The notes under the pieces are model-generated. The model saw only the letters and a list, made by a program, of their open reading frames with translations, made no database searches and was not told where the DNA came from. Below are positions 1 to 55,440 of a stretch of DNA of 64,000 nt, one piece after another. Made by a program: the position numbers and the translations under genes. This stretch comes from Candidatus Zixiibacteriota bacterium (GTDB taxonomy: Bacteria; Zixibacteria; MSB-5A5; RBG-16-43-9): contig JALHSU010000194.1 in the NCBI GenBank assembly GCA_022865345.1, forward strand, positions 9,249 through 73,248, given 5' to 3'. Each line of letters starts with the position of its first letter. Position 1 is the stretch's first letter.

Positions 1-671
1 CCAACTATCACTGCTCTGGCTACTATCGAATGCCCGATGGAGAACTCGTCTATATGTTTTATCCTGGCTATCTCCACGATGTTTTTATAATTCAGCCCAT
101 GTCCGGCATTTATACCTAAACTCAGCCTATAAGCCAAGTCCACCATCCTCTCGATTTTTTCCAGTTCCTCAATCTTTTCGCCTAAGTTTTTCGCCTCAGA
201 ATATTTTGCCGTATTTATCTCCACAAAATCGGTTTTAAGTTTAGCCGCGGCTTTTATCGATTCTATCTCCGGATTAACAAAAAGGCTGAGCAGGATCTCG
301 TTTACCTGTAGTTTGGGAATAATCTGGGACAGCTTTTCGTAGTTATCCACTACGTTCAGTCCGCCTTCTGTGGTTATCTCTCCTTCCCTTTCAGGCACTA
401 AGGTCACCATATCCGGCTTTATCTCCAAAGCCTTTTCTAACATCTCCTGAGTTGCCGCCATCTCTAAGTTCAAACTCGTTTTTACTACCTCTCTGAGAAT
501 CTTCAAATCTCTGTCTTTGATATGCCGGCGATCCCCTCTCAGGTGAATCGTTATCCCATCTGCACCCGCGAATTCGGAAGCTATGGCTGCGGCAATCGGG
601 TCCGGCTCTGAAGATTTTCTTGCCTCCCTTAAAGTAGCCACGTGATCGATATTAATGCTTAATTTAGGCAT
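1..671 (-). CDS. pdxJ: pyridoxine 5'-phosphate synthase PdxJ (partial; C-terminus lies beyond the window start)
   Basis: Not in the ORF track because it runs off the window. Reverse complement of 642-671 reads ATG then MPKLSINIDHVATLREARKSSEPDP..., the PdxJ N-terminal signature (INIDHvATLRnaR). The frame stays open to position 1. Confidence 0.8.
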   Translation of the reverse strand, partial: MPKLSINIDHVATLREARKSSEPDPIAAAIASEFAGADGITIHLRGDRRHIKDRDLKILREVVKTSLNLEMAATQEMLEKALEIKPDMVTLVPEREGEITTEGGLNVVDNYEKLSQIIPKLQVNEILLSLFVNPEIESIKAAAKLKTDFVEINTAKYSEAKNLGEKIEELEKIERMVDLAYRLSLGINAGHGLNYKNIVEIARIKHIDEFSIGHSIVARAVIV

Positions 672-688
672 AACCTCTCCTTTTACTT

Positions 689-1246
689 TTATGGACCTTG
701 AATGGAATTATCCTGCCAGTAAACTATGCGCCAGAAACCATCCTCTGATCTTCTGAATTTGAATTTGGCAAACCCGGTTGCCTCTAAATGTTCATAATTA
801 TAATCCCCGTCGATATCTGTCAGGCTCAAATGGAAATTCGCCTGTCTTAATTTAAGCTCTTCGTGAGTCAGGGAATCATATTCCGAAGGAAGCGGAAAGA
901 CCTCCCAGGTCTCCAGGCGGATGTCGTCGAAAACCTTGAAAACACCCCTTGTTCTCTCCAGGTCATCACTTCGTTGAATCCGCTGCTCCTGCAGCTCTCC
1001 GGGGATGTCGCTCTGGTCAATGTAATAGAAAAGGAAATCCTGGTTCAGGCAGTTCTCGTAAGTGATTATATCCCGGTATTCATAAGCATATTTGAAATTT
1101 TTCATGACGCTGTCCGGATCGGTTTGCGAGGCAACCGGCGCCATAAATCCCGGACCTACTTCAGGAGGCGAAAACGGGTTATAACAGGATAAACCTGAAA
1201 CTAAGATTAAAATTATGTATAAGGCTTTTTTCATCATCCTTCTCAC
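689..1246 (-). CDS. hypothetical lipoprotein (signal peptide plus lipobox LSGLSC, then C-x-NPF)
   Basis: 185-aa ORF with an N-terminal hydrophobic segment ending in a cysteine lipobox. It is a paralog of the adjacent 200-aa ORF (shared block ...KNFKYAYEYRDIITYENCLNQDFLFY... versus ...QNLYNAYTEKIIDNYVMCFSDSFVF...). Confidence 0.6.
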   Translation of the reverse strand: MRRMMKKALYIILILVSGLSCYNPFSPPEVGPGFMAPVASQTDPDSVMKNFKYAYEYRDIITYENCLNQDFLFYYIDQSDIPGELQEQRIQRSDDLERTRGVFKVFDDIRLETWEVFPLPSEYDSLTHEELKLRQANFHLSLTDIDGDYNYEHLEATGFAKFKFRRSEDGFWRIVYWQDNSIQGP

Positions 1247-1845
1247 CTAAACTGGGATTTGAACTTTGCCCAGTCGGATTCTCCAGTCAGAAGCGGACGG
1301 TCAACCCAGGAGTAGATAATCCAGAAATCGTAGGCTGATTGCCGGAGATTGAAAGTCGAGCTCCCTTTAGCCACCCCGATAAGAGGTTCTGCCTTATCGT
1401 AATCATATAAGTAGATCAGGTAATCCCGGTAAAGGATTGCGCTGGTATCCCCTTTCACGTCCGGCTGGTCCGGATTTTTATCCAGGATAAGTACGTATCT
1501 TTTTGAGCTGGAGCTATACAGGTTAAATAGCCCGAAAGTGACGTTCCTTTCAACTGCCAGGTTCCAGTTCCAGAAACGCTCTGGCTGGTTTTGTCCAATC
1601 GCTTCTTGGGAATCCTCAGGCGCGGAGAAGACAAAGGAATCAGAAAAACACATAACGTAATTATCGATTATCTTTTCGGTATAAGCATTATAAAGGTTCT
1701 GGATAACCGTCTCCGGGGTAGTGGGAGGGTTCCAGGTTCCTCTGGGACCTGAAGGTGCGGCTGAGCTCCTGGTCTTAAAGGGATTCTTGCAGCCACAAAG
1801 GACCAGAGTCCCGATGAATATGACAAGGGCGATTTTCTTGACCAT
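1243..1845 (-). CDS. hypothetical lipoprotein, paralog of 689..1246 (lipobox LVLCGC, C-x-NPF)
   Basis: 200-aa ORF with a signal peptide and Cys lipobox. It overlaps the downstream paralog by 4 bp (ATGA), which suggests translational coupling within an operon. Confidence 0.6.
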   Translation of the reverse strand: MVKKIALVIFIGTLVLCGCKNPFKTRSSAAPSGPRGTWNPPTTPETVIQNLYNAYTEKIIDNYVMCFSDSFVFSAPEDSQEAIGQNQPERFWNWNLAVERNVTFGLFNLYSSSSKRYVLILDKNPDQPDVKGDTSAILYRDYLIYLYDYDKAEPLIGVAKGSSTFNLRQSAYDFWIIYSWVDRPLLTGESDWAKFKSQFR

Positions 1846-1848
1846 TTT

Positions 1849-3648
1849 TTACAGAGTCCTTCCCAGGGTTATAGTTATGAAATTGGACAAATCCTCTTTG
1901 CTTCTGCTTTCTTTCTGTGCCCGAACAGTCCAGACAAACCTGATGAAATTTGCCTGATCAGTTACATAATCTATGGAAAAGTTTAACAGATTTCTATAAA
2001 ATTTATAGGTGAAAACTTTTTTCTCCTTCCCAGTTGGCAGGTCCAGAAACAGGCTATAGTCCTTTCTGATCTCATAATTGTATCCAGAGGAGAAGATCAC
2101 GCTTTTGAAAAGTTTATGCCTGACCAAAAGTCCAAAACCCTGGGTTTTCCTTTCCCAGGAGGGTCTTCTCACCCATTCATCCTTCCACAAAAGCTGTCCA
2201 AAATCCTCAAACCGATAAAGGTAACTCAGCTCCCCTTCCAGATTTTCGCTGGCGGAGTAGTTCAAGCGGCTAAAAGTTGAAGCCCTTCTAAAAATCTTGT
2301 TCTGGTTACTCTCGGTCGCCTTCTGAAAATCATAGGAGATATAATTAGCCTGAATCTGGTATTCCTGATAAAACCTCACTTTCTGGCTTATCCTCCAGCT
2401 CAGGCCAGGCGAAAGATTATAGGTCTCGTTGTAATTGTTATTGGCTGATTTCTGGCTGGAAATATATATCTGGTGGAAGTTCTTGAAACCGGTTTTGACT
2501 TTCAAACTGAATGACCGGCTGAAGATGTGCAGGTATTCCACAGACAGTATTTTGGTAAGGACATCCCGGTCATTGAAAAAGGAACCTGGAGCGGTATAAA
2601 AGGAGGTCACGCCCATGGAAGCTGAAATAAAACCTGAGTCGGAATTGCTGAATCTTGCTGAAAACCTCCCTCCCAACTCCCCGCTTTTCATATCCTGATT
2701 TCTTTCGGATAATCCATAGTCTTCCTGCCCGGACATATATTTATAAAACCCTTCCAAGTTAGCCCTGCCGAAAAAAGTTCTGCTCAGGCTCAAAATGTAA
2801 TCTCTCGAGCTGAGGGAATTATCTCTGAGATAAAGAGGGTTGAACAGGGTATCCTCTTCAGAGACGTAGCGGTAAGTGTTCAGTTGAAAGTTATAACCGA
2901 ATTTGAGCAGGAAACCGGAGAATAAACCTCTGGATGTATCCAGTCTTAAGACTCTCTCGGTTTTTCTTTGAGTGCTCGTCTGAGAACCTTCACTGGAGAA
3001 AAAACTTTTTTTTGACCATCCTTCCTGGTACTCTAAGTTCATGGAATCTTTATCTGCTAAGTTTCTATTGAATCGAATTCTCAGGTTCCTCTCCTGACTG
3101 GGTATCCTTTCCAATTTTACCAGGCCTTGATTCAAATCCACAAAAAACTCGGCTTTTTCCCAGGAGAAGGGTCCCAGCCCCAGGGCAAGAGAATAGTTCA
3201 GTCCGGATTCTCCTCCTTTTGTCGCCTCTGATTTCCGGTTGATGGAGCTTATCCCCACATTCTGAGAAACTTTCAGCTTCTGCCAGAGATTGGTCTCGGC
3301 AGTTAAAAGATAATCCTGAGACGTGACCTTCCTTGATCCCACGGAACTTAATTTATGCTGAAGGAGGACGCCGGCTTTGAAGTCCCTTTTTAAAAGATAA
3401 TCGAATTTCACCCTCAAACCCCCATCCTCCTGCCAGCGGTCCTGGATTTCCTGTTTTATCAGAAGTGAATTCAAAGAAAACAAAAATTCCCAGTAGAAAT
3501 TCTTATCCTGATTGTAGATATATTCCAGCCGGTTGTTCCAGTTGTAAGTCTGGTTATTCCGGGAGAAATCCAGGTGCAGGTTCGAGGCATATGCGGGCTG
3601 AATCAGACAAATAATGAGGACGAGAAAACTTAAGTAAACCTTTTTCAT
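1849..3648 (-). CDS. hypothetical secreted protein, probably an outer-membrane beta-barrel
   Basis: 599 aa. N-terminal signal peptide MKKVYLSFLVLIICLIQPAYA. The sequence is rich in Y/S/N/R with alternating-hydrophobic beta-strand-like segments. It overlaps ksgA by 4 bp. Confidence 0.5.
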   Translation of the reverse strand: MKKVYLSFLVLIICLIQPAYASNLHLDFSRNNQTYNWNNRLEYIYNQDKNFYWEFLFSLNSLLIKQEIQDRWQEDGGLRVKFDYLLKRDFKAGVLLQHKLSSVGSRKVTSQDYLLTAETNLWQKLKVSQNVGISSINRKSEATKGGESGLNYSLALGLGPFSWEKAEFFVDLNQGLVKLERIPSQERNLRIRFNRNLADKDSMNLEYQEGWSKKSFFSSEGSQTSTQRKTERVLRLDTSRGLFSGFLLKFGYNFQLNTYRYVSEEDTLFNPLYLRDNSLSSRDYILSLSRTFFGRANLEGFYKYMSGQEDYGLSERNQDMKSGELGGRFSARFSNSDSGFISASMGVTSFYTAPGSFFNDRDVLTKILSVEYLHIFSRSFSLKVKTGFKNFHQIYISSQKSANNNYNETYNLSPGLSWRISQKVRFYQEYQIQANYISYDFQKATESNQNKIFRRASTFSRLNYSASENLEGELSYLYRFEDFGQLLWKDEWVRRPSWERKTQGFGLLVRHKLFKSVIFSSGYNYEIRKDYSLFLDLPTGKEKKVFTYKFYRNLLNFSIDYVTDQANFIRFVWTVRAQKESRSKEDLSNFITITLGRTL

Positions 3649-4478
3649 TTAATTGCTGAAATTATCTTAGCTAACTTCCCCAACTCTTTCAAGTTTAGAG
3701 TCTCACCCCTCTTTTGGGAATCTATTTCTGCATCCTTTAAGATAGTCTGAAGCTCGTCTTTATTCAAGTCCAAACTTTTACTCAAGCTATTCAAAAGGGT
3801 TTTCCTTCTCTGGGAGAAAACTGCTTTTACCAGATCGGTGAAGAAGGGAAACTCCACCTCCACTTTTGGTCTTAAAAGGAACCTGATTTTTATGACCGCC
3901 GAGTCAACTTTCGGAGGGGGAAAAAAGGAATTCGGTTTCAGGGTAAACAGAATTTCCGGATTGGAGAAAAGCTGAATCCCGATGGAAAGCGGGGACCAGT
4001 CAGGCGTGCCTGGTTTGGCACAGATACGTTTTGCCACCTCCTTCTGCACGGTCAAAATGGCTAAATCAATAAGTTCCCGGTTTCGAATAAGATACTCCAG
4101 AATCGGACTTGTTATCTGATAAGGGATATTCCCGATTACCTTTAATCTTCCTTCTTTTTGTGCAATCTTCTTAATGTCAAATTTTAAAATATCTTGATTT
4201 ATAATTTCAAAGTTTTCTTTGTCTTTGAATTTTTCTTTCAGATATAAGCAGAGGTTCCTATCCAGCTCCACTCCATAAACTCTCTTAGCCTTTTCTAAGA
4301 GAAAGTGGGTCAATGCGCCTTTACCGGGTCCAATCTCCAGGACTTTCTCATCTGGTTTTAACTCTAAGTAATCAACAATTCTTTTTGCGGCTTTGAGATT
4401 GACCAGAAAATTCTGGCTGAATCTTTTTCTGGGAAAGATTCTGGAGTCCTTTTGTCTGGGTAAAGAAGAGAATTTCAT
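3645..4478 (-). CDS. rsmA: 16S rRNA (adenine1518/1519-N6)-dimethyltransferase RsmA/KsgA
   Basis: FSQNFLVN...VLEIGPGKGALT...GNIPYQITSPIL motifs of the KsgA/Erm methyltransferase family. Ends with a TGA stop. Confidence 0.9.
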   Translation of the reverse strand: MKFSSLPRQKDSRIFPRKRFSQNFLVNLKAAKRIVDYLELKPDEKVLEIGPGKGALTHFLLEKAKRVYGVELDRNLCLYLKEKFKDKENFEIINQDILKFDIKKIAQKEGRLKVIGNIPYQITSPILEYLIRNRELIDLAILTVQKEVAKRICAKPGTPDWSPLSIGIQLFSNPEILFTLKPNSFFPPPKVDSAVIKIRFLLRPKVEVEFPFFTDLVKAVFSQRRKTLLNSLSKSLDLNKDELQTILKDAEIDSQKRGETLNLKELGKLAKIISAIK

Positions 4479-5236
4479 TCTAATCTGAAGAGTTTTTTTG
4501 TATTCTGAGTGAAAATCTCATCTATCTCTTTAAAAGTATGTGAGTCAGAAAGCTGGACGACTTTTTCTATGACCAGCCTGACCAATTTAGGCTCATTTCT
4601 TTTACCCCGCATTGGCTCAGGAGTTAAATAAGGGCAATCAGTCTCAGTTAAAATCGAGCTTAGGGGGATTTTCTTCACCAGCTCGGCTGACCTGGAATTT
4701 TTATAGGTCAAGGTGCCGTTAAAGGAAAGACAAAAACCAAGATTAAGAGCATCTTTAGCCTCATTCTCATCCCCTGAGAAACAATGAAGAACCCCTTTCA
4801 ACCCTGCGGCGTCAGCTCTGAGAATATCTAGAGCTTTTTTATAGGCATTTCTGATATGGACGACGATCGGGAGTTTTAATTTCCTGGCCAAATCTATCTG
4901 CTCCTTAAAAGCCTTTATCTGCACATTCTCAGGAGAAAGATTTCTGTAAAAATCCAGCCCGATTTCACCTATTGCCACAACTTTTGGATGAGAAGCTATT
5001 TTTTCCAACTCTTTGAAAGCCTCACCGGTCAATTTAGACGCATCATGCGGATGGAACCCCACAGTGGCATAAATATTTTTGTACTTTTCAGCTAACCTTA
5101 TCGACTTTTCAGACGATTCTAAATCCACCCCGATATTGACAATCGACTCTAATCCGGAGGAAAAAGCATCTTCAATAACCTTATCTCTATCCTTATCATA
5201 CTGCGAAAAATCCAAGTGAGCATGGGTATCGATCAT
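4475..5236 (-). CDS. tatD: TatD-family metal-dependent hydrolase/DNase
   Basis: MIDTHAHLDF...GEIGLDFYRN...HCFSG motifs typical of TatD. Confidence 0.85.
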   Translation of the reverse strand: MIDTHAHLDFSQYDKDRDKVIEDAFSSGLESIVNIGVDLESSEKSIRLAEKYKNIYATVGFHPHDASKLTGEAFKELEKIASHPKVVAIGEIGLDFYRNLSPENVQIKAFKEQIDLARKLKLPIVVHIRNAYKKALDILRADAAGLKGVLHCFSGDENEAKDALNLGFCLSFNGTLTYKNSRSAELVKKIPLSSILTETDCPYLTPEPMRGKRNEPKLVRLVIEKVVQLSDSHTFKEIDEIFTQNTKKLFRLE

Positions 5237-5319
5237 AATATTCCCTTACAATTAAAGAATCATCCTTCTCTTTAATAATAAGCCTCCTAAAATTGAATGT
5301 CAATTCCTTTTAGTTGACT

Positions 5320-5437
5320 TGTATCACCCTCAAACAAGTTTGAGGGTGATACCCTATACGGGGCTGGGAGCCCCGCCTACGAGAGAAGGGATCTCTTTTT
5401 CCTTTCGTAGGTCGGGCACCCTTGCCCGACTTTTTTG
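5320..5437. repeat. array of four GC-rich hairpins, ending in a hairpin plus T-run (gtcgggcacccttgcccgac tttttt)
   Basis: tcaccctcaaac/gtttgagggtga (12-bp stem), ggggct-ggg-agcccc, cctacga...tcgtagg and gtcgggca/tgcccgac, all within an AT-rich intergenic stretch. Confidence 0.6.
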
Positions 5438-5445
5438 GAAAAAAA

Positions 5446-5489
5446 TGGAAGGCTAAAAAGTCTCAAGACCTTGAGAACTTCCGCTACAT
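5446..5489. repeat. short repeat family G, copy 1 (atggaaggc...tccgctacat), carrying an inserted gtctcaagaccttgagac hairpin
   Basis: Shares aaaaatggaaggct...tccgctacat with 43480-43506 and 61323-61350. The tctcaagaccttgag hairpin recurs at 54853. Confidence 0.5.
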
Positions 5490-5526
5490 AATAACGATCT
5501 TAAACCTGCCTAACCCTGTCATCAAG

Positions 5527-5558
5527 ACAAAAAAAGAGATGTTCTGCAGAACATCTCT
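5527..5558 (-). terminator. rho-independent terminator of metG
   Basis: Perfect hairpin agagatgttctg/cagaacatctct followed on the minus strand by TTTTTTTG, about 25 nt after the metG stop. Confidence 0.7.
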
Positions 5559-5583
5559 TTTAAAATCTCGATTTACCTGGGTC

Positions 5584-7542
5584 TTAACTTATCTTCGCCC
5601 CGGGTTTAACCTCTTTATCCACTGTTAATATGGTCAGATTTTCCCCGTCCTGAGCGGCAAGGAGCATCCCTTTTGATTCTATCCCTTTTATGCGAGCAGG
5701 TTTTAAATTGGCAAGAAGGATAATCTTCTTTCCGACCAGCTCCTCTGGCTTATAATATTCCGCAATTCCGGCGACTATTTCTCGATTTTCGTCCTCGAAT
5801 TCAACTTCAAGCTTTAAAAGCTTTTTTGCCCCTTCGACTTTTTCTGCTCCTATGACTTGAGCCACCCTTATATCCATTTTAGCGAAATCCTCAATAGTTA
5901 TTTCCATCTTCTCTTCTTTTGCAATTGAAACTTCAGATTTTTCTTTTGAGACCTCAGCCGGTTTTGCCTCTTTAAACCGAGGAAACAAGGGAACGATCTC
6001 CCGGATTTTCGTTCCGGGTTTTAAATAACCCCAGTCTTTTTCTCTTTCTAAATTCGGGATTATCTCATTTTGTGCTAACCCTAAAATCTCTCTTAACTTC
6101 TGACATTTCTCCGGCAGAGCAGGATAGAAAAGAAGACTGATAATCCTCAAGGTTTCTGCTGAGGCATAAAGAACCGTTCCCAATCGGGTTTTATCCTTTT
6201 CCTTGGCTAAATTCCAGGGAGCGGTCTTGTCCACATAGCGGTTGGTGAAGCGGACTAACTTCAGGACCTCATCAAGAGCCTGGTTGAGATTCAGCTCCTC
6301 GATTGAGTCAAAAACCACCTCGACTGTCTTCAGGGCTGAATTTTGCAGCTCCTTTTCATCCACAGAGTAATCCGAAGGCTTTGGAATCTCTCCGCGAAAA
6401 TGCTCCTTGATCAGCTTCAAAACCCGGCTGGCTAAATTGCCAAAATCGTTTGCTAAATCAGAATTATATTTCTCCTCTAATCTTTTCTCCTGAATGTCTC
6501 CATCCTGTCCGAAGGGAAAATGAGTCAAAAGGAGATAGCGGGTAGCATCACTGCCATACCTTTCTATCAGATAATAAGGGTCGATCACGTTGCCTAGAGA
6601 CTTCCCCATTTTTTGACCATTCACCGTGAAAAAACCGTGGATGAAAAGTATGTCTGGTGTTTTTTCTCCGAGCGCAATCAGCATCGCAGGCCAGTAGATG
6701 TTGTGGAATTTCAAAATGTCTTTACCTAAAAGATGTATAACTTTCCCCTCGGTCCACCATTTCTTGAATTCATCAGGATTATCCCCGTAACCGATAGCTG
6801 AAATATAATTTGGCAGAGCATCCACCCAGACATAGGTCTTCTGAGTAGTGTCGAAGGGCAAAGTTATCCCCCAGGTAACCTTTTCTCTCGAAATCGAAAA
6901 ATCCTCTAACTCCTGCTTGAAAAGCCCCAGGGTCTCTTTTTTCTTCTCCTCTGGCAAAATCCTTATTTTATCTTCTGTGATTAGTTTTTCGACCTGTGAC
7001 AGGTATGAGGAGAGCCTGAAAAAGTAGTTTTTCTCAGTTACCTTTTGCGGAGGTTTCAGATGATTGGGGCAAAGTCCGTTTACTAAATCTTTTTCGGTGA
7101 TGAATTTCTCGCAGCCCACGCAGTATAATCCAGTATATTCTCCAGGGTAAACTATCTTTTGACCTTTTTCATCTTTTGCTTGGTAAAGTATGTCCAGAAG
7201 TTTTTCAACTGCCTGAACGTGCCTTTCATCAGTGGTCCGCACGAAATAATCGAAGGATATATTCAGCTTTTCCCAGACCTCCTTGAAGCGTTGGCTATTT
7301 CTATCGCAAAACTCCTGCGGAGAGATTCCCGCCTGCTCGGCTGCCTCTGCTACCTTGCTGCCGTGCTCATCTGTTCCGGTCAAAAAGAAGGTCTCGTCCC
7401 CTTTGATGCGATGAAATCTGGTAAGGATATCAACCGCAACAGTGGGATAGGCGTGTCCGATATGCGGTTTATCGTTCACATAATATATGGGAGTGGTAAT
7501 AAAATATCTTCCTTTTTTGATCTGAGGCTTTAAGCCAGCCAA
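5584..7542 (-). CDS. metG: methionine--tRNA ligase with C-terminal tRNA-binding (EMAP/Trbp111-like) domain
   Basis: HIGH-type motif (PHIGHAY), KMSKS-type motif (KMGKSLGN) and a Zn-knuckle CxxC...CPNH. The C-terminal domain is of the ...GAEKVEGAKKLLKLEVEF... type. Confidence 0.92.
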   Translation of the reverse strand: MAGLKPQIKKGRYFITTPIYYVNDKPHIGHAYPTVAVDILTRFHRIKGDETFFLTGTDEHGSKVAEAAEQAGISPQEFCDRNSQRFKEVWEKLNISFDYFVRTTDERHVQAVEKLLDILYQAKDEKGQKIVYPGEYTGLYCVGCEKFITEKDLVNGLCPNHLKPPQKVTEKNYFFRLSSYLSQVEKLITEDKIRILPEEKKKETLGLFKQELEDFSISREKVTWGITLPFDTTQKTYVWVDALPNYISAIGYGDNPDEFKKWWTEGKVIHLLGKDILKFHNIYWPAMLIALGEKTPDILFIHGFFTVNGQKMGKSLGNVIDPYYLIERYGSDATRYLLLTHFPFGQDGDIQEKRLEEKYNSDLANDFGNLASRVLKLIKEHFRGEIPKPSDYSVDEKELQNSALKTVEVVFDSIEELNLNQALDEVLKLVRFTNRYVDKTAPWNLAKEKDKTRLGTVLYASAETLRIISLLFYPALPEKCQKLREILGLAQNEIIPNLEREKDWGYLKPGTKIREIVPLFPRFKEAKPAEVSKEKSEVSIAKEEKMEITIEDFAKMDIRVAQVIGAEKVEGAKKLLKLEVEFEDENREIVAGIAEYYKPEELVGKKIILLANLKPARIKGIESKGMLLAAQDGENLTILTVDKEVKPGAKIS

Positions 7543-38928: not shown

Positions 38929-39471
38929 CTACTTCTTTGTCCCTTTCGCTTTTTCTTCTTTCATCTTGGCTAACAAATCCTCAGATGATTGACCAACCGT
39001 GGCGATCGACCCCATTAGCTGGACGATATGCCATTGGTTATCTTCTTTTATCATCGTCATAGAAAGCCGTAGAAGGGCGCGCATCATTTGTTCTGCGATC
39101 ACCAGGTCATACGGGACTTCGAAAAGTGCCGAAGCTAACTTACCATCCGGACTGATTTGCATCGAAAGATATCTCAGCTCGTCGAATTTCTCCAGTTTCA
39201 GCAATTCCCAATCAACTTCAAAATGCGATTTCAATCCATCTAAATTTTTAAACACCTCGGCTGAATCTGTGCCTAACACCAAAAGCTCTGAAGATTTAGA
39301 AAACAAATTGAGAATACCCTCTGTATCCTTGGCTTGTATTGATTTGCTATAGCTAATCGCCACCTCCTCAACCGCCTTTTTCTCTTTAGCGATTTCCTCC
39401 GGTGTCATCTTTTGGGGACCGCAGCCAGCAACTAAAGCCACTATCAAGAGCAATGGAATAATACGGGACAC
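38929..39471 (-). CDS. hypothetical lipoprotein
   Basis: Signal peptide plus lipobox LVAGCG. 180 aa. Its family is not recognised. Confidence 0.5.
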   Translation of the reverse strand: MSRIIPLLLIVALVAGCGPQKMTPEEIAKEKKAVEEVAISYSKSIQAKDTEGILNLFSKSSELLVLGTDSAEVFKNLDGLKSHFEVDWELLKLEKFDELRYLSMQISPDGKLASALFEVPYDLVIAEQMMRALLRLSMTMIKEDNQWHIVQLMGSIATVGQSSEDLLAKMKEEKAKGTKK

Positions 39472-43589: not shown

Positions 43590-46500
43590 TCAGCAAGGTG
43601 GTGGTCCGCCTTTAAAAAGATAGTTAACTAAATACACTACATCGGAAACAGTTACTTTCCCATCGCAATTAGCGTCTCCGGACTGAATTGGAATAGGGGT
43701 TTGACCCCCTTTGAACAGATAATTTACCAGATAAACCGCATCCGATACAGTTACTTTGTGATCACCGTTAGCATCACCGCACGTGTACTCATATTGATAA
43801 TCATATTCATACACACCCATATCCACTCTGCAACCTCTTATTCTGGGTTTAAAGTCAAAATCAAAATCGGGTAAACCTGAAATATATTTGTCTCCTGCAT
43901 TAACGCAAGGGGAGTTTTCCTGCAAGTGGTAATCAGTGTCCGGATTGACAAACATAGGATTCCTGATAATGTTGTGATAACTGTCGCAAGGGATTCCATT
44001 GACATTAGTTCCCCAGGTGGTATCTCCAATTTCGGGAGGAGGATATCCCTCAGCATCAAAATTACCATCAGCATTGTTCCAAACATCATTATGTGAAATA
44101 CCATAGTAAGAAGAACAGTTCATGAAACTCATCCCGTGACCATCGTTGTTAACGATAATGTTGTTGCTAACATTATGAGTACAAACATTCCATATAAGCA
44201 TTCCATCAGATCCATTGTTTGAGATGGTGTTATTAACAATTCTAGGGCTACCGCCGCTTTCTATGCATATTCCACCACCACCGTCATCGCAACTATTTAG
44301 AATAATCAAGTTATTCACAATTAAGGGGCTTGATGTTCCCCTGCAAGACATACCACCTCCCAGTTCCCACATCCCTCCCGGCTCGCTAGGGATGTGATTG
44401 TTAATAATCAAATTGTTCATTATTGTAGGTGATGAAGAAAAGCAATAAATGCCTCCACCATGGCGTTGCCACCTTCCCAGATAAAAGTTAGTTCCTGTGC
44501 CGCCAGTGATGGTGAATCCTATTAAAATAGATATAGAATCCTCGCCTGAAACAAAAGTTACCACACTGCCTGAATCGGGATTAATAGGTTCACTTCCATC
44601 AATTATAGTTGCTTCAATAGTGGCAGAGTTATGGTCATAGATAAAATGGCTTGCTACAGTTATAGCTTTGCCCCGGAAATTTATATTCTCATAATAAGTT
44701 CCAGGCGCAACCAAAACCGTATCTCCATTCGAAGCAGAATCAATACCTTCTTGAATTGTTTGAAAATCAACCGGAATCCGGATAACATGCGGGCTAGGGG
44801 TAAATGGCTCCAACCGGAAAAGCTTCCCTTCACCAGGACCCAGATAGACTGTAAACATGTCACCTATTCCATTTACCATACCAACTTTCGTGTTGAGGTA
44901 CATATCTCTGATATAGAATGGACCACCTGCTTTGCTTAAAAAGACATCGTAATTTGCTCCTTCGGTTGCCAAGCATTCACGGTTAACCAGCATAAAGTAG
45001 CTGGTATCGCCGGTTTGATTCTCAAAGAATCCGACCTGCACCCAATGGGGTTCATGCCCAGGTGACCTGATGCTGTCGAGGTAACTGCCACCGCAGCCAT
45101 GGAGGTCATTGTTGTTGTAGGAACTGTCTAAGCAGGCATCAATCCAGTCGAGGCTCCGCAGCGTTGTGCCGAGGGAATCAAGCCAGAAATTAATCTGGAC
45201 AACCTCAGTTAGCAAAGTCTCTGGTTGGCTCGAATAAGGATTTGGACCGGGGTAGGTCTCAATAGGCACCCAATCCTGCACATCTTCGTTCCACCATAGC
45301 AATCCACTTTGCCAAGCCGGATTTTGGGGGGTCCATTGTGGGTGACTTGAGTACCGAAAGTACTCCATTCCTTTGGCACCATAAGCCAAGGATAAGTAAA
45401 CGGTGGTCCTTAGCTCGCTGTTGTGCGAATATCTCCACCAATAGGGGTCCCTGAGAGTTTGGGCCACATACCACCATTCGATATTATGTTCGCGTGCGGC
45501 TTCAGCCGCTTGTCGGATGCGCCAGGTAAACAGATTTAGCAGGTACTGAAGAGATTCTGGAACAACCCAGGTAGCTATAGGGTAATCATCATAACATATT
45601 TCATGTGGTTGTACCTCATCCGCAAACTTTTTAGGATGATGCCAGGCTGCATCTCCTGTTGCTTGAATTCCCGGAACATAGTTGAGTGAATCAAGTAGAT
45701 GGCTTATCTCTCTGTTGGTTTTGTAATGCACATAGGCGGGTTCGTCACGCAAGTACCATCGAAATAAAGATGTTCCATGATATTGATTTTCCAACGTTGA
45801 TACTTGTGCAATAATCCTATCTTGATAGGTTGGACTGTGATTCATTAAGGTATCGTAAATGCAATCATAAACTTCGACATAATCTATGAAGAGATCAGTA
45901 TTCTTAAACCAGTGAACTCTGTAATCGACCGAATCATTTCCATAAGGGATTTGGTTGTGGAATGACAGTTCAAATATCCGGTATTGCCCCAGAGTGAAAT
46001 CCCCGTAGAGAAGTAGGGAATCCGCCACTACGCTATCTCTTACCGCGTTCATATAATGAACCTCAATACGTGCAACTGAGTCCAAAGGTTGAGCACCAGG
46101 TGTTACAGGAACCTTAAGGTTAAAGCGGGCATAGTATATTAGTTCATAATAACATCCCCACCAGCTATTTGAGCAGAGCATCTCTCTGCTATAATCAACG
46201 ATGCAACATGTGTCACGGATTCTGTCACAGTCGGGTTGTTCATGCCAGAGTCCCCACAATACCAACCCACCATTATGGGTTACGCTGTCCTTAGATTCGA
46301 ACCATGCGTATCCGTTGCCAGCGTCTGGGTCTTGCACCTGATTGCCATATCCGTTGTGATCCAAACGAGTACTGAGAAAGCGGATTTGATCTCCTGGATA
46401 AGGTTGATAGTAATCTCTGAGATTATGTCTGTCGGCTTCATACTTACTGTACAGTCCATTTCCCGGCTGCAAGTAGATGTAGTCTATCAAGTTAAGAGTA

Positions 46501-46697
46501 TCGACCGAAGCTGAATCATAATCTGCATAAGTAAATCCCCAGGGAAGGGAATGAGCGCAATTAAAACCGTGACTTTTTGTTTTATCGAAATAGGGATAAG
46601 ACCTAAAATCTGGTGTGTGGAGAGGACCGTAGACACCACGATGAAAATTCGGTTCAAAGGCCACTACTGAGGTAAAGAAGAAACCGAGAAAGAGCAA
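43590..46697 (-). CDS. large secreted protein: N-terminal glycoside-hydrolase-like region, parallel beta-helix (PbH1) repeats, C-terminal type-I dockerin pair
   Basis: C-terminus GDANGDHKVTVSDAVYLVNYLF ... GDANCDGKVTVSDVVYLVNYLF has the two Ca-binding dockerin repeats. There are N-N-x-I-x-N-N beta-helix turns. The track start is a TTG. A probable true start, ATG 46739 with SD AGGAG, is separated from this frame by an in-frame TGA at codon 8. Confidence 0.7.
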   Translation of the reverse strand: MLFLGFFFTSVVAFEPNFHRGVYGPLHTPDFRSYPYFDKTKSHGFNCAHSLPWGFTYADYDSASVDTLNLIDYIYLQPGNGLYSKYEADRHNLRDYYQPYPGDQIRFLSTRLDHNGYGNQVQDPDAGNGYAWFESKDSVTHNGGLVLWGLWHEQPDCDRIRDTCCIVDYSREMLCSNSWWGCYYELIYYARFNLKVPVTPGAQPLDSVARIEVHYMNAVRDSVVADSLLLYGDFTLGQYRIFELSFHNQIPYGNDSVDYRVHWFKNTDLFIDYVEVYDCIYDTLMNHSPTYQDRIIAQVSTLENQYHGTSLFRWYLRDEPAYVHYKTNREISHLLDSLNYVPGIQATGDAAWHHPKKFADEVQPHEICYDDYPIATWVVPESLQYLLNLFTWRIRQAAEAAREHNIEWWYVAQTLRDPYWWRYSHNSELRTTVYLSLAYGAKGMEYFRYSSHPQWTPQNPAWQSGLLWWNEDVQDWVPIETYPGPNPYSSQPETLLTEVVQINFWLDSLGTTLRSLDWIDACLDSSYNNNDLHGCGGSYLDSIRSPGHEPHWVQVGFFENQTGDTSYFMLVNRECLATEGANYDVFLSKAGGPFYIRDMYLNTKVGMVNGIGDMFTVYLGPGEGKLFRLEPFTPSPHVIRIPVDFQTIQEGIDSASNGDTVLVAPGTYYENINFRGKAITVASHFIYDHNSATIEATIIDGSEPINPDSGSVVTFVSGEDSISILIGFTITGGTGTNFYLGRWQRHGGGIYCFSSSPTIMNNLIINNHIPSEPGGMWELGGGMSCRGTSSPLIVNNLIILNSCDDGGGGICIESGGSPRIVNNTISNNGSDGMLIWNVCTHNVSNNIIVNNDGHGMSFMNCSSYYGISHNDVWNNADGNFDAEGYPPPEIGDTTWGTNVNGIPCDSYHNIIRNPMFVNPDTDYHLQENSPCVNAGDKYISGLPDFDFDFKPRIRGCRVDMGVYEYDYQYEYTCGDANGDHKVTVSDAVYLVNYLFKGGQTPIPIQSGDANCDGKVTVSDVVYLVNYLFKGGPPPC

Positions 46698-54038: not shown

Positions 54039-54764
54039 TCAATTTAACCTGAACTTCTCGCCCAGGTAGATCTTCCTGGCTTCCGGGTCTGAAGCTAAGA
54101 ACTCAGAGGTGCCGGATTTTAATATCTCGCCTTCGCTCATTATATAGGCTCTATCAGTTATTGCCAGAGTTTCTCTGACGTTATGGTCAGTGATCAAAAT
54201 TCCCAGTTCCTTCTGTTTCAATCTGAAGATTATTTTCTGGATATCCTCAACTGCAATCGGGTCGATTCCCAAAAACGGTTCATCTAAGAGCATAAACTTC
54301 GGCTCAGTGACTAGGGCACGCGTAATCTCAACTCTTCTCCTTTCCCCGCCTGAAAGGGTATAAGCCTTATTTTTAGCTAAAGAAGCTATATCCAGTTCAT
54401 TTAACAGGCTTTCCAATCTAATCTTACGTTCTTTTTTATCTATTTTTTGCATCTCTAAAATAGCTAAGATATTCTCTTCCACGGTCAGTTTCCTGAAGAT
54501 GGAAGGCTCTTGCGAAAGATACCCTATCCCTTTTTGAGCCCTTTTATACATTGGTAGACCAGTTATATTCTCTGAATCAATTAAGACCTTGCCGGAATTC
54601 GGCTTGATAAAGCCGATGAACATATAGAAGGTAGTAGTCTTGCCAGCCCCATTAGGTCCCAAAAGCCCAACCACTTCACCCTGTTTAACATCAATTGAGA
54701 CCTCATTCACCACCTTCCTTTTCTTGTAGATCTTAACCAGATTCTCCGACCTTAATATCAGCAT
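54039..54764 (-). CDS. lptB: LPS export ABC transporter ATP-binding protein LptB
   Basis: Walker [22 protein letters not shown], and Walker B MLLDEP. Located immediately upstream of rpoN, the conserved lptB position. Start taken at MLILRSENL. Confidence 0.85.
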
Positions 54765-54882
54765 ATTCTTCCTTTGTGTCAAGAACAACTGTGGAAACAA
54801 TTCTGAAGTATAAACCTTCAGGTTTATAAAAACTAATCGGGGTAAAGCTCAAGTCTCAAGACCTTGAGGCTTTACACTCCAG

Positions 54883-55440
54883 TTATCCGTTCCCCTCTTC
54901 TTTAGGCACCTCTTTGATCTTTCCCTTAACCTCTTTTTTGATCCTGAACTGTTTCAGCTCCTGGTCTGCCTCCAAGCCGTAGCCGGTTATCACATCTTTC
55001 CCTTTGGTTATCTTTACAAAATCCTCTGTAGTAACCTTATTTGTCTTAGGGTTCCAGCTTAAACTCTGGGTTTCCAGAATCATCCCCTGGTCGGTTTTAA
55101 CCACCACATTCCCCATCACCATCAGCTCCTGCCTTTTCTCTTTTATCCAGCCAGAATCAGACTGAAGGGTGGAGACGTGTTTTCCGTCCCGGTCGTAAAT
55201 GTGAGCATAAATTCCCTTGCCTCTGGAAAGGTCCTCCTTTTCGTATTTTTCCAGATGCCTGACCTTGATCTCAGCAGACCTTACCCCGTTAACCGTAAAA
55301 AACATTGTGGTATTTTCCACCACCTGGTCCGGAAAAGTGGTGGGTGTCTGGATTTTCCTCTGACTTTCCACTTTACAAGAAAAGATCAAGCTTAACCCTA
55401 TGAGAAATATAAGCGGTATTATTCTTTTGTCCATACACAT
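54883..55440 (-). CDS. lptC: LptC-like LPS export protein (membrane-anchored OstA-like beta-jellyroll)
   Basis: N-terminal TM, about 185 aa, beta-rich with ...GNVVVKTDQGMILETQSLSWNPKTNKVTTED..., and positioned upstream of lptB. Confidence 0.6.
   Translation of the reverse strand: MCMDKRIIPLIFLIGLSLIFSCKVESQRKIQTPTTFPDQVVENTTMFFTVNGVRSAEIKVRHLEKYEKEDLSRGKGIYAHIYDRDGKHVSTLQSDSGWIKEKRQELMVMGNVVVKTDQGMILETQSLSWNPKTNKVTTEDFVKITKGKDVITGYGLEADQELKQFRIKKEVKGKIKEVPKEEGNG

Follow-up and report, generated by a model that had tools for sequence, protein, structure and literature searches.

A conserved gene trio for a predicted 28-stranded outer-membrane barrel and two paralogous NPF lipoproteins in Zixibacteria

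What is the role of the three genes that lie between ksgA and pdxJ in Zixibacteria, and are they the local counterpart of LptD and LptE? The question arises from a 64,000-nucleotide window of a Candidatus Zixiibacteriota contig, the whole stretch of DNA analyzed here, in which a large protein of outer-membrane type and two small lipoproteins, LipB and LipA, are encoded next to one another. An earlier note on this DNA had compared their neighborhood with that of ksgA and the pdx gene in proteobacteria, and the parallel is real, as evidenced by the E. coli cluster lptD-surA-pdxA-rsmA. The likeness may be a coincidence.

Six genes, all on the minus strand, make up the locus. A tatD-family hydrolase gene (4475-5236; TIGR00010, E = 2.3e-86) is followed by ksgA/rsmA for the 16S rRNA dimethyltransferase (3645-4478; TIGR00755, E = 4.5e-82, above cut-off), by the open reading frames for the 599-aa predicted outer-membrane beta-barrel (1849-3648), the 200-aa LipB (1243-1845) and its paralog LipA (689-1246), and by pdxJ for pyridoxine 5'-phosphate synthase, which starts at 671 and is cut by the window edge (1-671; NF003625, E = 2.7e-92). 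Curated NCBIfam cut-offs are exceeded for RsmA, the YchF/TatD family and PdxJ, and likewise for LptB and LptC. With a GTG start at 1246 LipA comprises 185 aa; the public gene call for the identical locus begins at an ATG at 1237 and yields 182 aa, which we consider the more likely version. The packing is as tight and operon-like as had been claimed, with junctions ranging from a 4-bp overlap to a 17-nt gap: tatD/ksgA and ksgA/barrel overlap by 4 bp, barrel and LipB are separated by 3 nt, the junction of LipB and LipA is a 4-bp overlap if the GTG is the start codon and a 5-nt gap if the ATG is, and 17 nt lie between LipA and pdxJ. Upstream of tatD we found a terminator-like hairpin 3' of metG (5561-5532) and the best promoter-like match of the region (5303-5275), both of them consensus matches of types whose counts do not exceed those in shuffled sequence. 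The transcription unit probably begins with tatD. Note that co-transcription by itself is no proof of a common function, as the operon also holds tatD, ksgA and pdxJ.

The AlphaFold2 model of the 599-aa protein (pLDDT 89.5) agrees with its earlier description as a large barrel of outer-membrane type. Following a signal peptide of residues 1-21, cleaved between A-Y-A and S, 28 long antiparallel strands extend over residues 22-598, an even number that was taken from the DSSP secondary-structure string of the model. Strand 1 begins at residue 22, directly after the signal peptide, and the model contains neither a plug nor an N-terminal domain. All loops are short: none exceeds 13 aa, and they add up to 87 residues on one face and 42 on the other. 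The C-terminal residue is a phenylalanine in the family consensus and a leucine in the protein from the window. Signal peptide, all-beta meander, even strand number and a hydrophobic C-terminal residue together are the marks of an outer-membrane beta-barrel, and the neighbors retrieved by Foldseek are barrels as well. A TonB-dependent transporter, with its N-terminal plug, TonB box and 22 strands, is ruled out by the missing plug. By sequence the protein stands apart: Pfam gave no match even at E <= 1 and NCBIfam gave none, and a profile search of the PDB with the barrel returned nothing at E <= 10.

The nearest solved folds are the 26-stranded barrels MtrB (TM 0.47) and LptD (TM 0.2-0.3, with Foldseek TMq values of 0.18-0.31 for the individual LptD chains). 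These are the two largest single-chain barrels, and both enclose a partner protein. Like MtrB of the MtrCAB complex (PDB 6r2q), whose lumen is filled by one partner and which has a second partner lipoprotein on the cell surface, the modeled protein is a barrel of large size whose loops are short; a TM-score below 0.5 nevertheless means that size and shape of the two barrels are not identical. It differs from MtrB in that the trio has no multihaem partner and in that sequence identity amounts to 8-10%. The sequences of the barrel, LipA and LipB hold no CxxCH motif, and the lack of haem motifs rules out an MtrB-like electron conduit of the porin-cytochrome type. According to the model, the barrel with its 28 predicted strands would exceed in size every solved PDB barrel to which it was matched, and the standard barrel-radius formula gives its otherwise open lumen an estimated backbone diameter of roughly 50 Å.

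LipA and LipB are true paralogs, as had been proposed, with 26% identity in BLASTP (E = 8e-8) and cross-HMM matches of 1e-12 to 1e-14. Both types are found throughout the phylum, and the duplication is thus ancient with both copies retained. They are predicted to be bacterial lipoproteins by signal peptide and lipobox: the lipobox cysteine is invariant and preceded by a hydrophobic h-region in the orthologs of both, and position -1 is G, S or A in 61/62 LipB and S, A or G in 47/58 LipA sequences. The model of LipB (pLDDT 89) comprises the predicted lipidation site Cys19 within C-K-N-P-F, a disordered tether of about 25 residues (approximately 19-43), an NTF2-like alpha+beta cone with three helices on a curved antiparallel sheet (44-184) and a C-terminal helix with the conserved pattern D-W-A-x-F-K-x-x-F-R. 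LipA shares this build, with Y-N-P-F-S-P after Cys21, a tether and an NTF2-like domain, except that the C-terminal helix is missing. No named Pfam family was reached at cut-off by either protein, and neither was an NCBIfam model or a PDB sequence; LipA has no Pfam match, and that of LipB to SnoaL_3 (E = 0.012, 16.4 bits) remains below the cut-off of 22. The cone is common to LipB and the NTF2-like superfamily of SnoaL, DUF4440 and CaMKII-association-domain-like proteins (PDB 3gwr, 3rob, 1tp6). LipA and LipB depart from its members by their lipid anchor and conserved NPF tether, and LipB also by its additional C-terminal helix; neither has known catalytic residues. An unrelated SnoaL_3 lipoprotein is encoded elsewhere in the window.

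The N-terminal segment of both proteins is distinctive. A hydrophobic signal segment and a lipobox cysteine are present in each, together with the C-x-NPF motif described earlier. In LipA the motif reads C-x-N-P-F-[SA]-P in 61/61 orthologs, with the phenylalanine in 60, and in LipB it varies between C-K-NPF, C-x-K-NPF and C-A/T-SPF. The pattern Cys-x(1,2)-[NSD]PF is specific for this family, as it occurs in none of approximately 45 other lipobox-like ORFs in Zixibacteria loci, which rules out NPF as a general lipoprotein sorting signal in the phylum, and in none of the three other lipoproteins in the window. In LipB the segment comprising cysteine, NPF motif and tether spans residues 19-43 (1717-1791, minus strand). 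Residues 24-35 have pLDDT values below 50 and are disordered in the monomer model, yet conservation is higher in the tether (0.65) than in the domain (0.57). A tether that is conserved although it is modeled as disordered would fit a segment that folds upon a partner. In RcsF-OMP and BamC-type lipoproteins, a lipidated cysteine is followed by a conserved disordered N-terminal segment that binds to, or is threaded through, a barrel partner. LipA and LipB recall this arrangement, from which they differ in having no sequence or fold relationship to those proteins.

The three genes occur together in related genomes, a point that the earlier note had proposed to check. Among the 62 species-level Zixibacteria loci of sufficient length, the gene order ksgA-barrel-LipB-LipA has no exception, and it persists down to 25-28% identity of the barrel. 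In 29 loci pdxJ follows directly 3', and in others it has moved away while the order of the trio holds; one lineage (L070) has LipB only. Measured from the preceding stop codon to the codon of the lipobox Cys, the median distance is 53 nt between barrel and LipB and 63.5 nt between LipB and LipA, such that in almost all loci the region coding for each signal peptide adjoins or overlaps the gene before it. Beyond the phylum the picture changes. The barrel belongs to a family of 883 clusters that is spread over Zixibacteria, KSB1 and metagenome lineages and is not represented by any Pfam or NCBIfam model. In a metagenome scan for barrel relatives, run with the P0118 clade alignment, the 80 loci outside Zixibacteria, one member of which is named KSB1, hold no lipoprotein of LipA/LipB type near the barrel, and the gene context is eno-ftsB-barrel-RsbW-like. 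The barrel thus may not require LipA and LipB.

The wide occurrence of the barrel family without these lipoproteins speaks for a rival view, in which there would be no complex at all and the barrel would be a stand-alone large channel or structural outer-membrane protein, with its own loops or an unlinked partner to close it. LipA and LipB would then act in the periplasm as NTF2-like lipoproteins, perhaps as enzymes or binders, and have no more in common with the barrel than a constitutive operon. The functionally unrelated tatD, ksgA and pdxJ in the same operon agree with such a view, as does the fact that many NTF2-like proteins are enzymes, and the SnoaL_3 lipoprotein encoded elsewhere in the window has also been counted in its favor. 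Against this, co-occurrence and order are perfect phylum-wide, even where pdxJ has moved, and the tethers are conserved though disordered; moreover, a plugless barrel of 28 strands with short loops would open a very wide pore through the outer membrane. We regard the absence of a complex as rather improbable.

The most conserved part of the barrel, according to the invariant alignment columns, consists of residues 337-498, that is, strands 17-24 with their loops (2155-2640, minus strand). Motifs common to the wider family are D-R-D (360-362), S-A-N-N-N (401-405), A-N-Y-x-x-Y-D (434-440), R454 and E-D-x-G (481-484), with invariance read from the three alignments A1, A5, which is very diverse, and A6. 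The best conserved loops are on the face that standard outer-membrane protein topology makes extracellular. Together with the family-specific and highly conserved N-terminal motif and tether, and with a strict gene order that suggests ordered assembly, they raise the alternative of a surface-lipoprotein system, where the barrel would serve as the translocon or anchor for surface display of LipA and LipB. The Cys-x-NPF tether would then be an export or threading signal, as in Slam-dependent lipoproteins, the export signal of Bacteroidota or the OMP-threaded RcsF, and the NTF2 cones would bind ligands at the surface and pass them to the channel. In the Mtr complex MtrB, the top structural match, does bear a surface lipoprotein, MtrC. 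The top motifs and conserved loops are however also present in relatives that have no such lipoproteins, which means that these motifs are not the signature of a lipoprotein-binding site. A Slam-like exporter is ruled out, with no match to TPR or DUF560, and no other known exporter was matched either. On balance a surface-lipoprotein system seems unlikely to us.

With respect to LptD and LptE, the comparison put forward earlier holds in its general layout and fails as to family membership. Like LptD/LptE (E. coli b0054/b0641; PDB 4rhb, 5iv8), the trio combines a very large single-chain barrel with lipoproteins of approximately 190 aa, and like lptD the barrel gene is found near ksgA and a pdx gene in a housekeeping setting, with LptD among the nearest solved folds. 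Unlike LptD, the barrel has no OstA/jellyroll N-terminal domain, for which strand 1 at residue 22 leaves no room, it has 28 predicted strands rather than 26, and it shows no sequence or profile similarity: neither an LptD nor an OstA model matched at E <= 1, and hhalign of alignment A1 against E. coli LptD gave a probability of 1.2%. The check for an LptE-like fold likewise turned out negative, with two lipoproteins instead of one, NTF2-like cones in place of the LptE (PF04390) fold, and an hhalign probability of 4.4% against E. coli LptE that spans the signal peptide alone. The trio thus falls outside the LptD/LptE families (PF03968/PF04453, PF04390). The analogy in architecture alone, in which a large barrel would enclose its lipoprotein partners, is plausible.

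A non-homologous or extremely diverged LPS translocon, taking the place of LptD/LptE in Zixibacteria, would explain the neighborhood of ksgA and pdx genes, which mirrors the single E. coli cluster, and a further trait of the window that had been recognized before: lptC (54883-55440) adjoins lptB (54039-54800), and lptA is missing beside them. Genes for LPS synthesis and inner-membrane export are present (kdsA-D, lpxL-like, lptC and lptB), and phmmer with E. coli LptD and LptE finds no LptD- or LptE-like ORF in the window, as noted earlier, nor does it across the 681 kb that the Zixibacteria loci cover. Universality of the trio in all informative loci, its place in a housekeeping operon and LptD as one of the nearest folds point in the same direction. 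The barrel nevertheless lacks the jellyroll for taking LPS from a periplasmic bridge, the hhalign probabilities are very low, the lipoproteins are NTF2-like rather than LptE-like, and relatives of the barrel in other phyla adjoin eno and ftsB and no lpt gene. A canonical lptD may also sit elsewhere in Zixibacteria genomes. Searches of the literature for Zixibacteria in connection with LptD, Lpt or the outer membrane, and for a '28-stranded' barrel in general, found nothing, and those for the Zixibacteria cell envelope and for lipopolysaccharide/LptA returned unrelated papers alone. We consider an LPS translocon of this kind very unlikely. Much the same holds for a new class of outer-membrane translocon, a 28-stranded barrel with a lumen gated by two lipid-anchored NTF2-like ligand carriers, that would export LPS or another envelope lipid with no jellyroll of the LptD type, as a non-homologous replacement for LptD/E, which we would call a long shot.

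We tentatively prefer to see the trio as a housekeeping module of the outer membrane, present throughout Zixibacteria, whose barrel and two lipoproteins form one complex, a reading to which we give somewhat less than an even chance. For its parts our confidence in the models is high: a predicted 28-stranded barrel and two anciently duplicated lipoproteins, each with a cysteine, an NPF tether and a predicted NTF2-like cone. Barrel, LipA and LipB would assemble as a single complex, with the tethers of the lipoproteins docking on or through the barrel wall and one or both NTF2 domains filling or capping the open lumen, in parallel to LptE in LptD and MtrA in MtrB. By this analogy, to plug or cap the barrel is the most likely part for the lipoproteins to play. 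Such a complex could plausibly gate a hydrophobic or amphipathic envelope molecule or carry it over the outer membrane, because NTF2-like cones typically bind hydrophobic ligands. For MlaC, a published study describes lipid carriage by an NTF2-like domain (PMC12153054).

The best reading of the trio is a phylum-specific set of barrel and lipoproteins that resembles LptD/LptE in general layout only. To our knowledge very large outer-membrane barrels are few, and those known, LptD, the ushers, MtrB and SprA, all serve central functions of the envelope. The barrel described here defines a family of approximately 880 sequence clusters outside all Pfam and NCBIfam models. If the three proteins form a complex, it would constitute a new barrel-plus-lipoprotein architecture and a candidate outer-membrane route for hydrophobic molecules or lipoproteins in phyla that have no cultured model organism, and should canonical lptD turn out to be absent from Zixibacteria genomes, it would be of direct relevance to the way in which LPS gets to the cell surface in these bacteria.

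The trio lies on the minus strand within positions 1-7542 of the window, where metG (5584-7542) is followed downstream by six genes: tatD (4475-5236, 253 aa), ksgA/rsmA (3645-4478, 277 aa), the ORF of a 599-aa predicted outer-membrane barrel (1849-3648), the genes of two small lipoproteins, LipB (1243-1845, 200 aa) and LipA (689-1246, 185 aa from a GTG start), and pdxJ, which starts at 671 and is truncated at the edge of the window. In a public gene prediction for the identical locus, LipA begins at an ATG at 1237 (182 aa). Overlaps of 4 bp join tatD to ksgA and ksgA to the barrel gene, 3 nt separate the barrel and LipB genes, and with the GTG start the LipB and LipA genes again overlap by 4 bp. 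The tatD, ksgA and pdxJ products match the NCBIfam models TatD, RsmA and PdxJ above curated cut-offs, as do PdxA, LptB and LptC in the same window, while the match of an LpxL-like acyltransferase to NCBIfam is not above its cut-off. The earlier note had described the locus correctly. By consensus match only, a strong terminator-like hairpin (5561-5532) lies 3' of metG, and the best promoter-like match of the region (5303-5275) lies ahead of tatD.

The 599-aa protein has no match in Pfam or NCBIfam at E <= 1 and no relative in the PDB by sequence at E <= 10. Its AlphaFold2 model, based on a 54-sequence alignment (pLDDT 89.5, pTM 0.75), comprises a signal helix and 28 long antiparallel strands across residues 22-598, with connecting loops of at most 13 residues and neither an N-terminal nor a plug domain. 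The protein is thereby predicted with high confidence to be a giant barrel of the outer-membrane type. Foldseek found no solved chain of this fold at TM >= 0.5; the top match was MtrB (TMq 0.47), and LptD chains scored 0.18-0.31. No single-chain barrels are larger than these two nearest solved folds, each of which encloses a partner protein. Standard barrel geometry, R = b / (2 sin(pi/n) cos(alpha)) with b = 4.4 Å, alpha ~40 degrees and n = 28, yields a backbone radius of ~25 Å, a value from the formula rather than from coordinates, and a lumen of this width should have room for at least one NTF2-sized domain.

LipA and LipB are paralogs as judged by their sequences (26% identity, BLASTP E = 8e-8; reciprocal HMM matches at 1e-12 to 1e-14). 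In both, a hydrophobic signal segment leads up to an invariant cysteine, preceded at position -1 by G/S/A in 61 of 62 LipB orthologs and by S/A/G in 47 of 58 LipA orthologs. At this cysteine, LipA has the motif C-x-N-P-F-[SA]-P in 61/61 orthologs (F in 60), and LipB shows the variants C-K-NPF, C-x-K-NPF or C-[AT]-SPF. A general lipoprotein signal is ruled out for the NPF motif, which occurs in none of ~45 other lipobox-like ORFs in Zixibacteria loci and in none of the 3 other lipoproteins within the window. At the level of sequence the only family match was SnoaL_3 to LipB, below threshold, and a PDB profile search gave no meaningful match. The AlphaFold2 model of LipB (84-sequence alignment, pLDDT 89.2, pTM 0.77) consists of a signal helix, a disordered stretch at 24-35 (pLDDT < 50), an alpha+beta cone at 44-184 and a short C-terminal helix, and both proteins are predicted with high confidence to be lipoproteins of NTF2-like type that carry a conserved tether. 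Conservation over the 25 residues that follow the cysteine at least equals that of the folded domain (LipB 0.65 vs 0.57; LipA 0.70 vs 0.67), which is unusual among lipoprotein tethers and would fit a segment that binds a partner. Matches to the lipoprotein family number 226, all of ~180-210 aa and without Pfam domains, and those with a name are from Zixibacteria only. A further 180-aa lipoprotein in the window (38929-39471, minus strand) has a SnoaL_3 (NTF2-like) domain (E = 4e-6), lacks the NPF motif and is missed by the LipA and LipB HMMs.

Barrel homologs from a word-indexed search are all ~600 aa long, and the named ones all belong to Zixibacteria. Scanning a single genome for each GTDB species yielded 62 loci, and by HMM mapping every one of sufficient length has the order (metG)-tatD-ksgA-barrel-LipB-LipA, with LipB before LipA without exception, down to 25-28% barrel identity. 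The trio genes abut in nearly all loci (median distances of 53 nt between the barrel stop and the Cys codon of LipB, and of 63.5 nt between the LipB stop and that of LipA), and we state with high confidence that they are strictly coupled phylum-wide. One lineage, L070 (GCA_975969635.1, 3132-5464), has tatD-ksgA-barrel-LipB without LipA, and its barrel is shorter (580 aa). Directly after LipA follows pdxJ in 29 loci or, in a deep clade of 22, an unannotated membrane-anchored ~390-aa protein in its stead. Such proteins of ~380-390 aa, encoded on the same strand before pdxJ or in its place (L006 11020-12165; L059 8947-10116), have an N-terminal membrane anchor and no Pfam or NCBIfam match. In many Zixibacteria the tatD ahead of ksgA carries a fused radical-SAM domain (~450-460 aa; L001 5581-6969, L006 5877-7238); that of the window is a plain 253-aa TatD. 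Many MAGs with a Zixibacteria-type trio are labelled 'uncultured Ignavibacteria' or 'Terriglobales' (L008, L010, L011, L013-L015 and others), probably a placeholder or wrong taxonomy.

The barrel family extends well beyond this phylum. An exhaustive HMM search based on the barrel profile retrieved 883 representative clusters at E <= 1e-3, 620 of them at E <= 1e-10 and one named candidate division KSB1; no Pfam or NCBIfam model covers the family as a whole or matched any of ten distant members. Common to its C-terminal part are the polar motifs D-R-D, S-A-N-N-N and A-N-Y-x-x-Y-D and an invariant arginine, which under standard OMP topology would be located in or near loops of the extracellular face. 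Outside Zixibacteria the recurrent context (L071-L150) is enolase, FtsB/DivIC, barrel and an RsbW-like HATPase_c_2 protein, often with an Omp85/POTRA protein or a SpoIIE phosphatase next; this context is seen, for example, in L004 6323-9779, L140 5560-7973 and L100 5965-11242. In one clade outside Zixibacteria, none of 80 metagenome loci has LipA, LipB or ksgA as neighbours, and no NTF2 lipoprotein was found near non-Zixibacteria relatives, KSB1 included. The barrel thus predates the lipoproteins and has a wider distribution than they do, and LipA and LipB appear to be a Zixibacteria-specific addition to it.

The earlier note had likened the trio to LptD/LptE. The likeness in architecture survives, but membership in these families failed every test applied, namely presence of a jellyroll, similarity by sequence or profile, number of strands and the fold of LptE; hhalign gave probabilities of 1.2% for the barrel against E. 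coli LptD and 4.4% for the lipoprotein against E. coli LptE, the latter with the signal peptide alone aligned. The E. coli cluster lptD-surA-pdxA-rsmA is an intriguing parallel to the ksgA/pdx neighbourhood, but it is not evidence of function, as barrel relatives in other phyla adjoin eno and ftsB. Canonical lptD, lptE and lptA are absent from the window and from 681 kb of related loci, a search of this gene neighbourhood only. The reported absence of lptA was confirmed: lptB (54039-54800) directly follows lptC (54883-55440, minus strand; TIGR04409, above cut-off), whose product has a hydrophobic segment and then a lipobox-like I-F-S-C. The window order kdsD, lpxL-like, lptC, lptB, rpoN mirrors, apart from lptA, the E. 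coli order kdsD-kdsC-lptC-lptA-lptB-rpoN. That the trio represents a non-homologous LPS translocon is, in our assessment, very improbable.

We tentatively favor, at somewhat less than even chances, a single complex of barrel, LipB and LipA. The tethers would attach to the barrel and the NTF2 domains would plug or cap its otherwise open lumen, and their cones may bind a hydrophobic ligand, for which MlaC, whose NTF2-like domain is described as carrying lipid (PMC12153054), is a precedent. A dedicated system for display or uptake of surface lipoproteins seems an unlikely role for the trio, and that barrel, LipA and LipB form no complex is in our view just as unlikely. Elsewhere in the window (34614-37433, plus strand), a FadL/Toluene_X outer-membrane channel (474 aa) immediately followed by a lipoprotein esterase (460 aa) constitutes another barrel-lipoprotein pair, possibly with a role in hydrophobic-substrate uptake, and a 1035-aa protein (43590-46697, minus strand) combines a right-handed beta-helix region with a C-terminal dockerin type I domain. 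Barrel, LipB and LipA are 'hypothetical' wherever named, have no family model and no solved relative by sequence, and our literature search found no paper on them. Systems that pair a large outer-membrane barrel with lipoproteins are already known; what is new here is the size of the barrel, its NTF2-like partners and the NPF tether.
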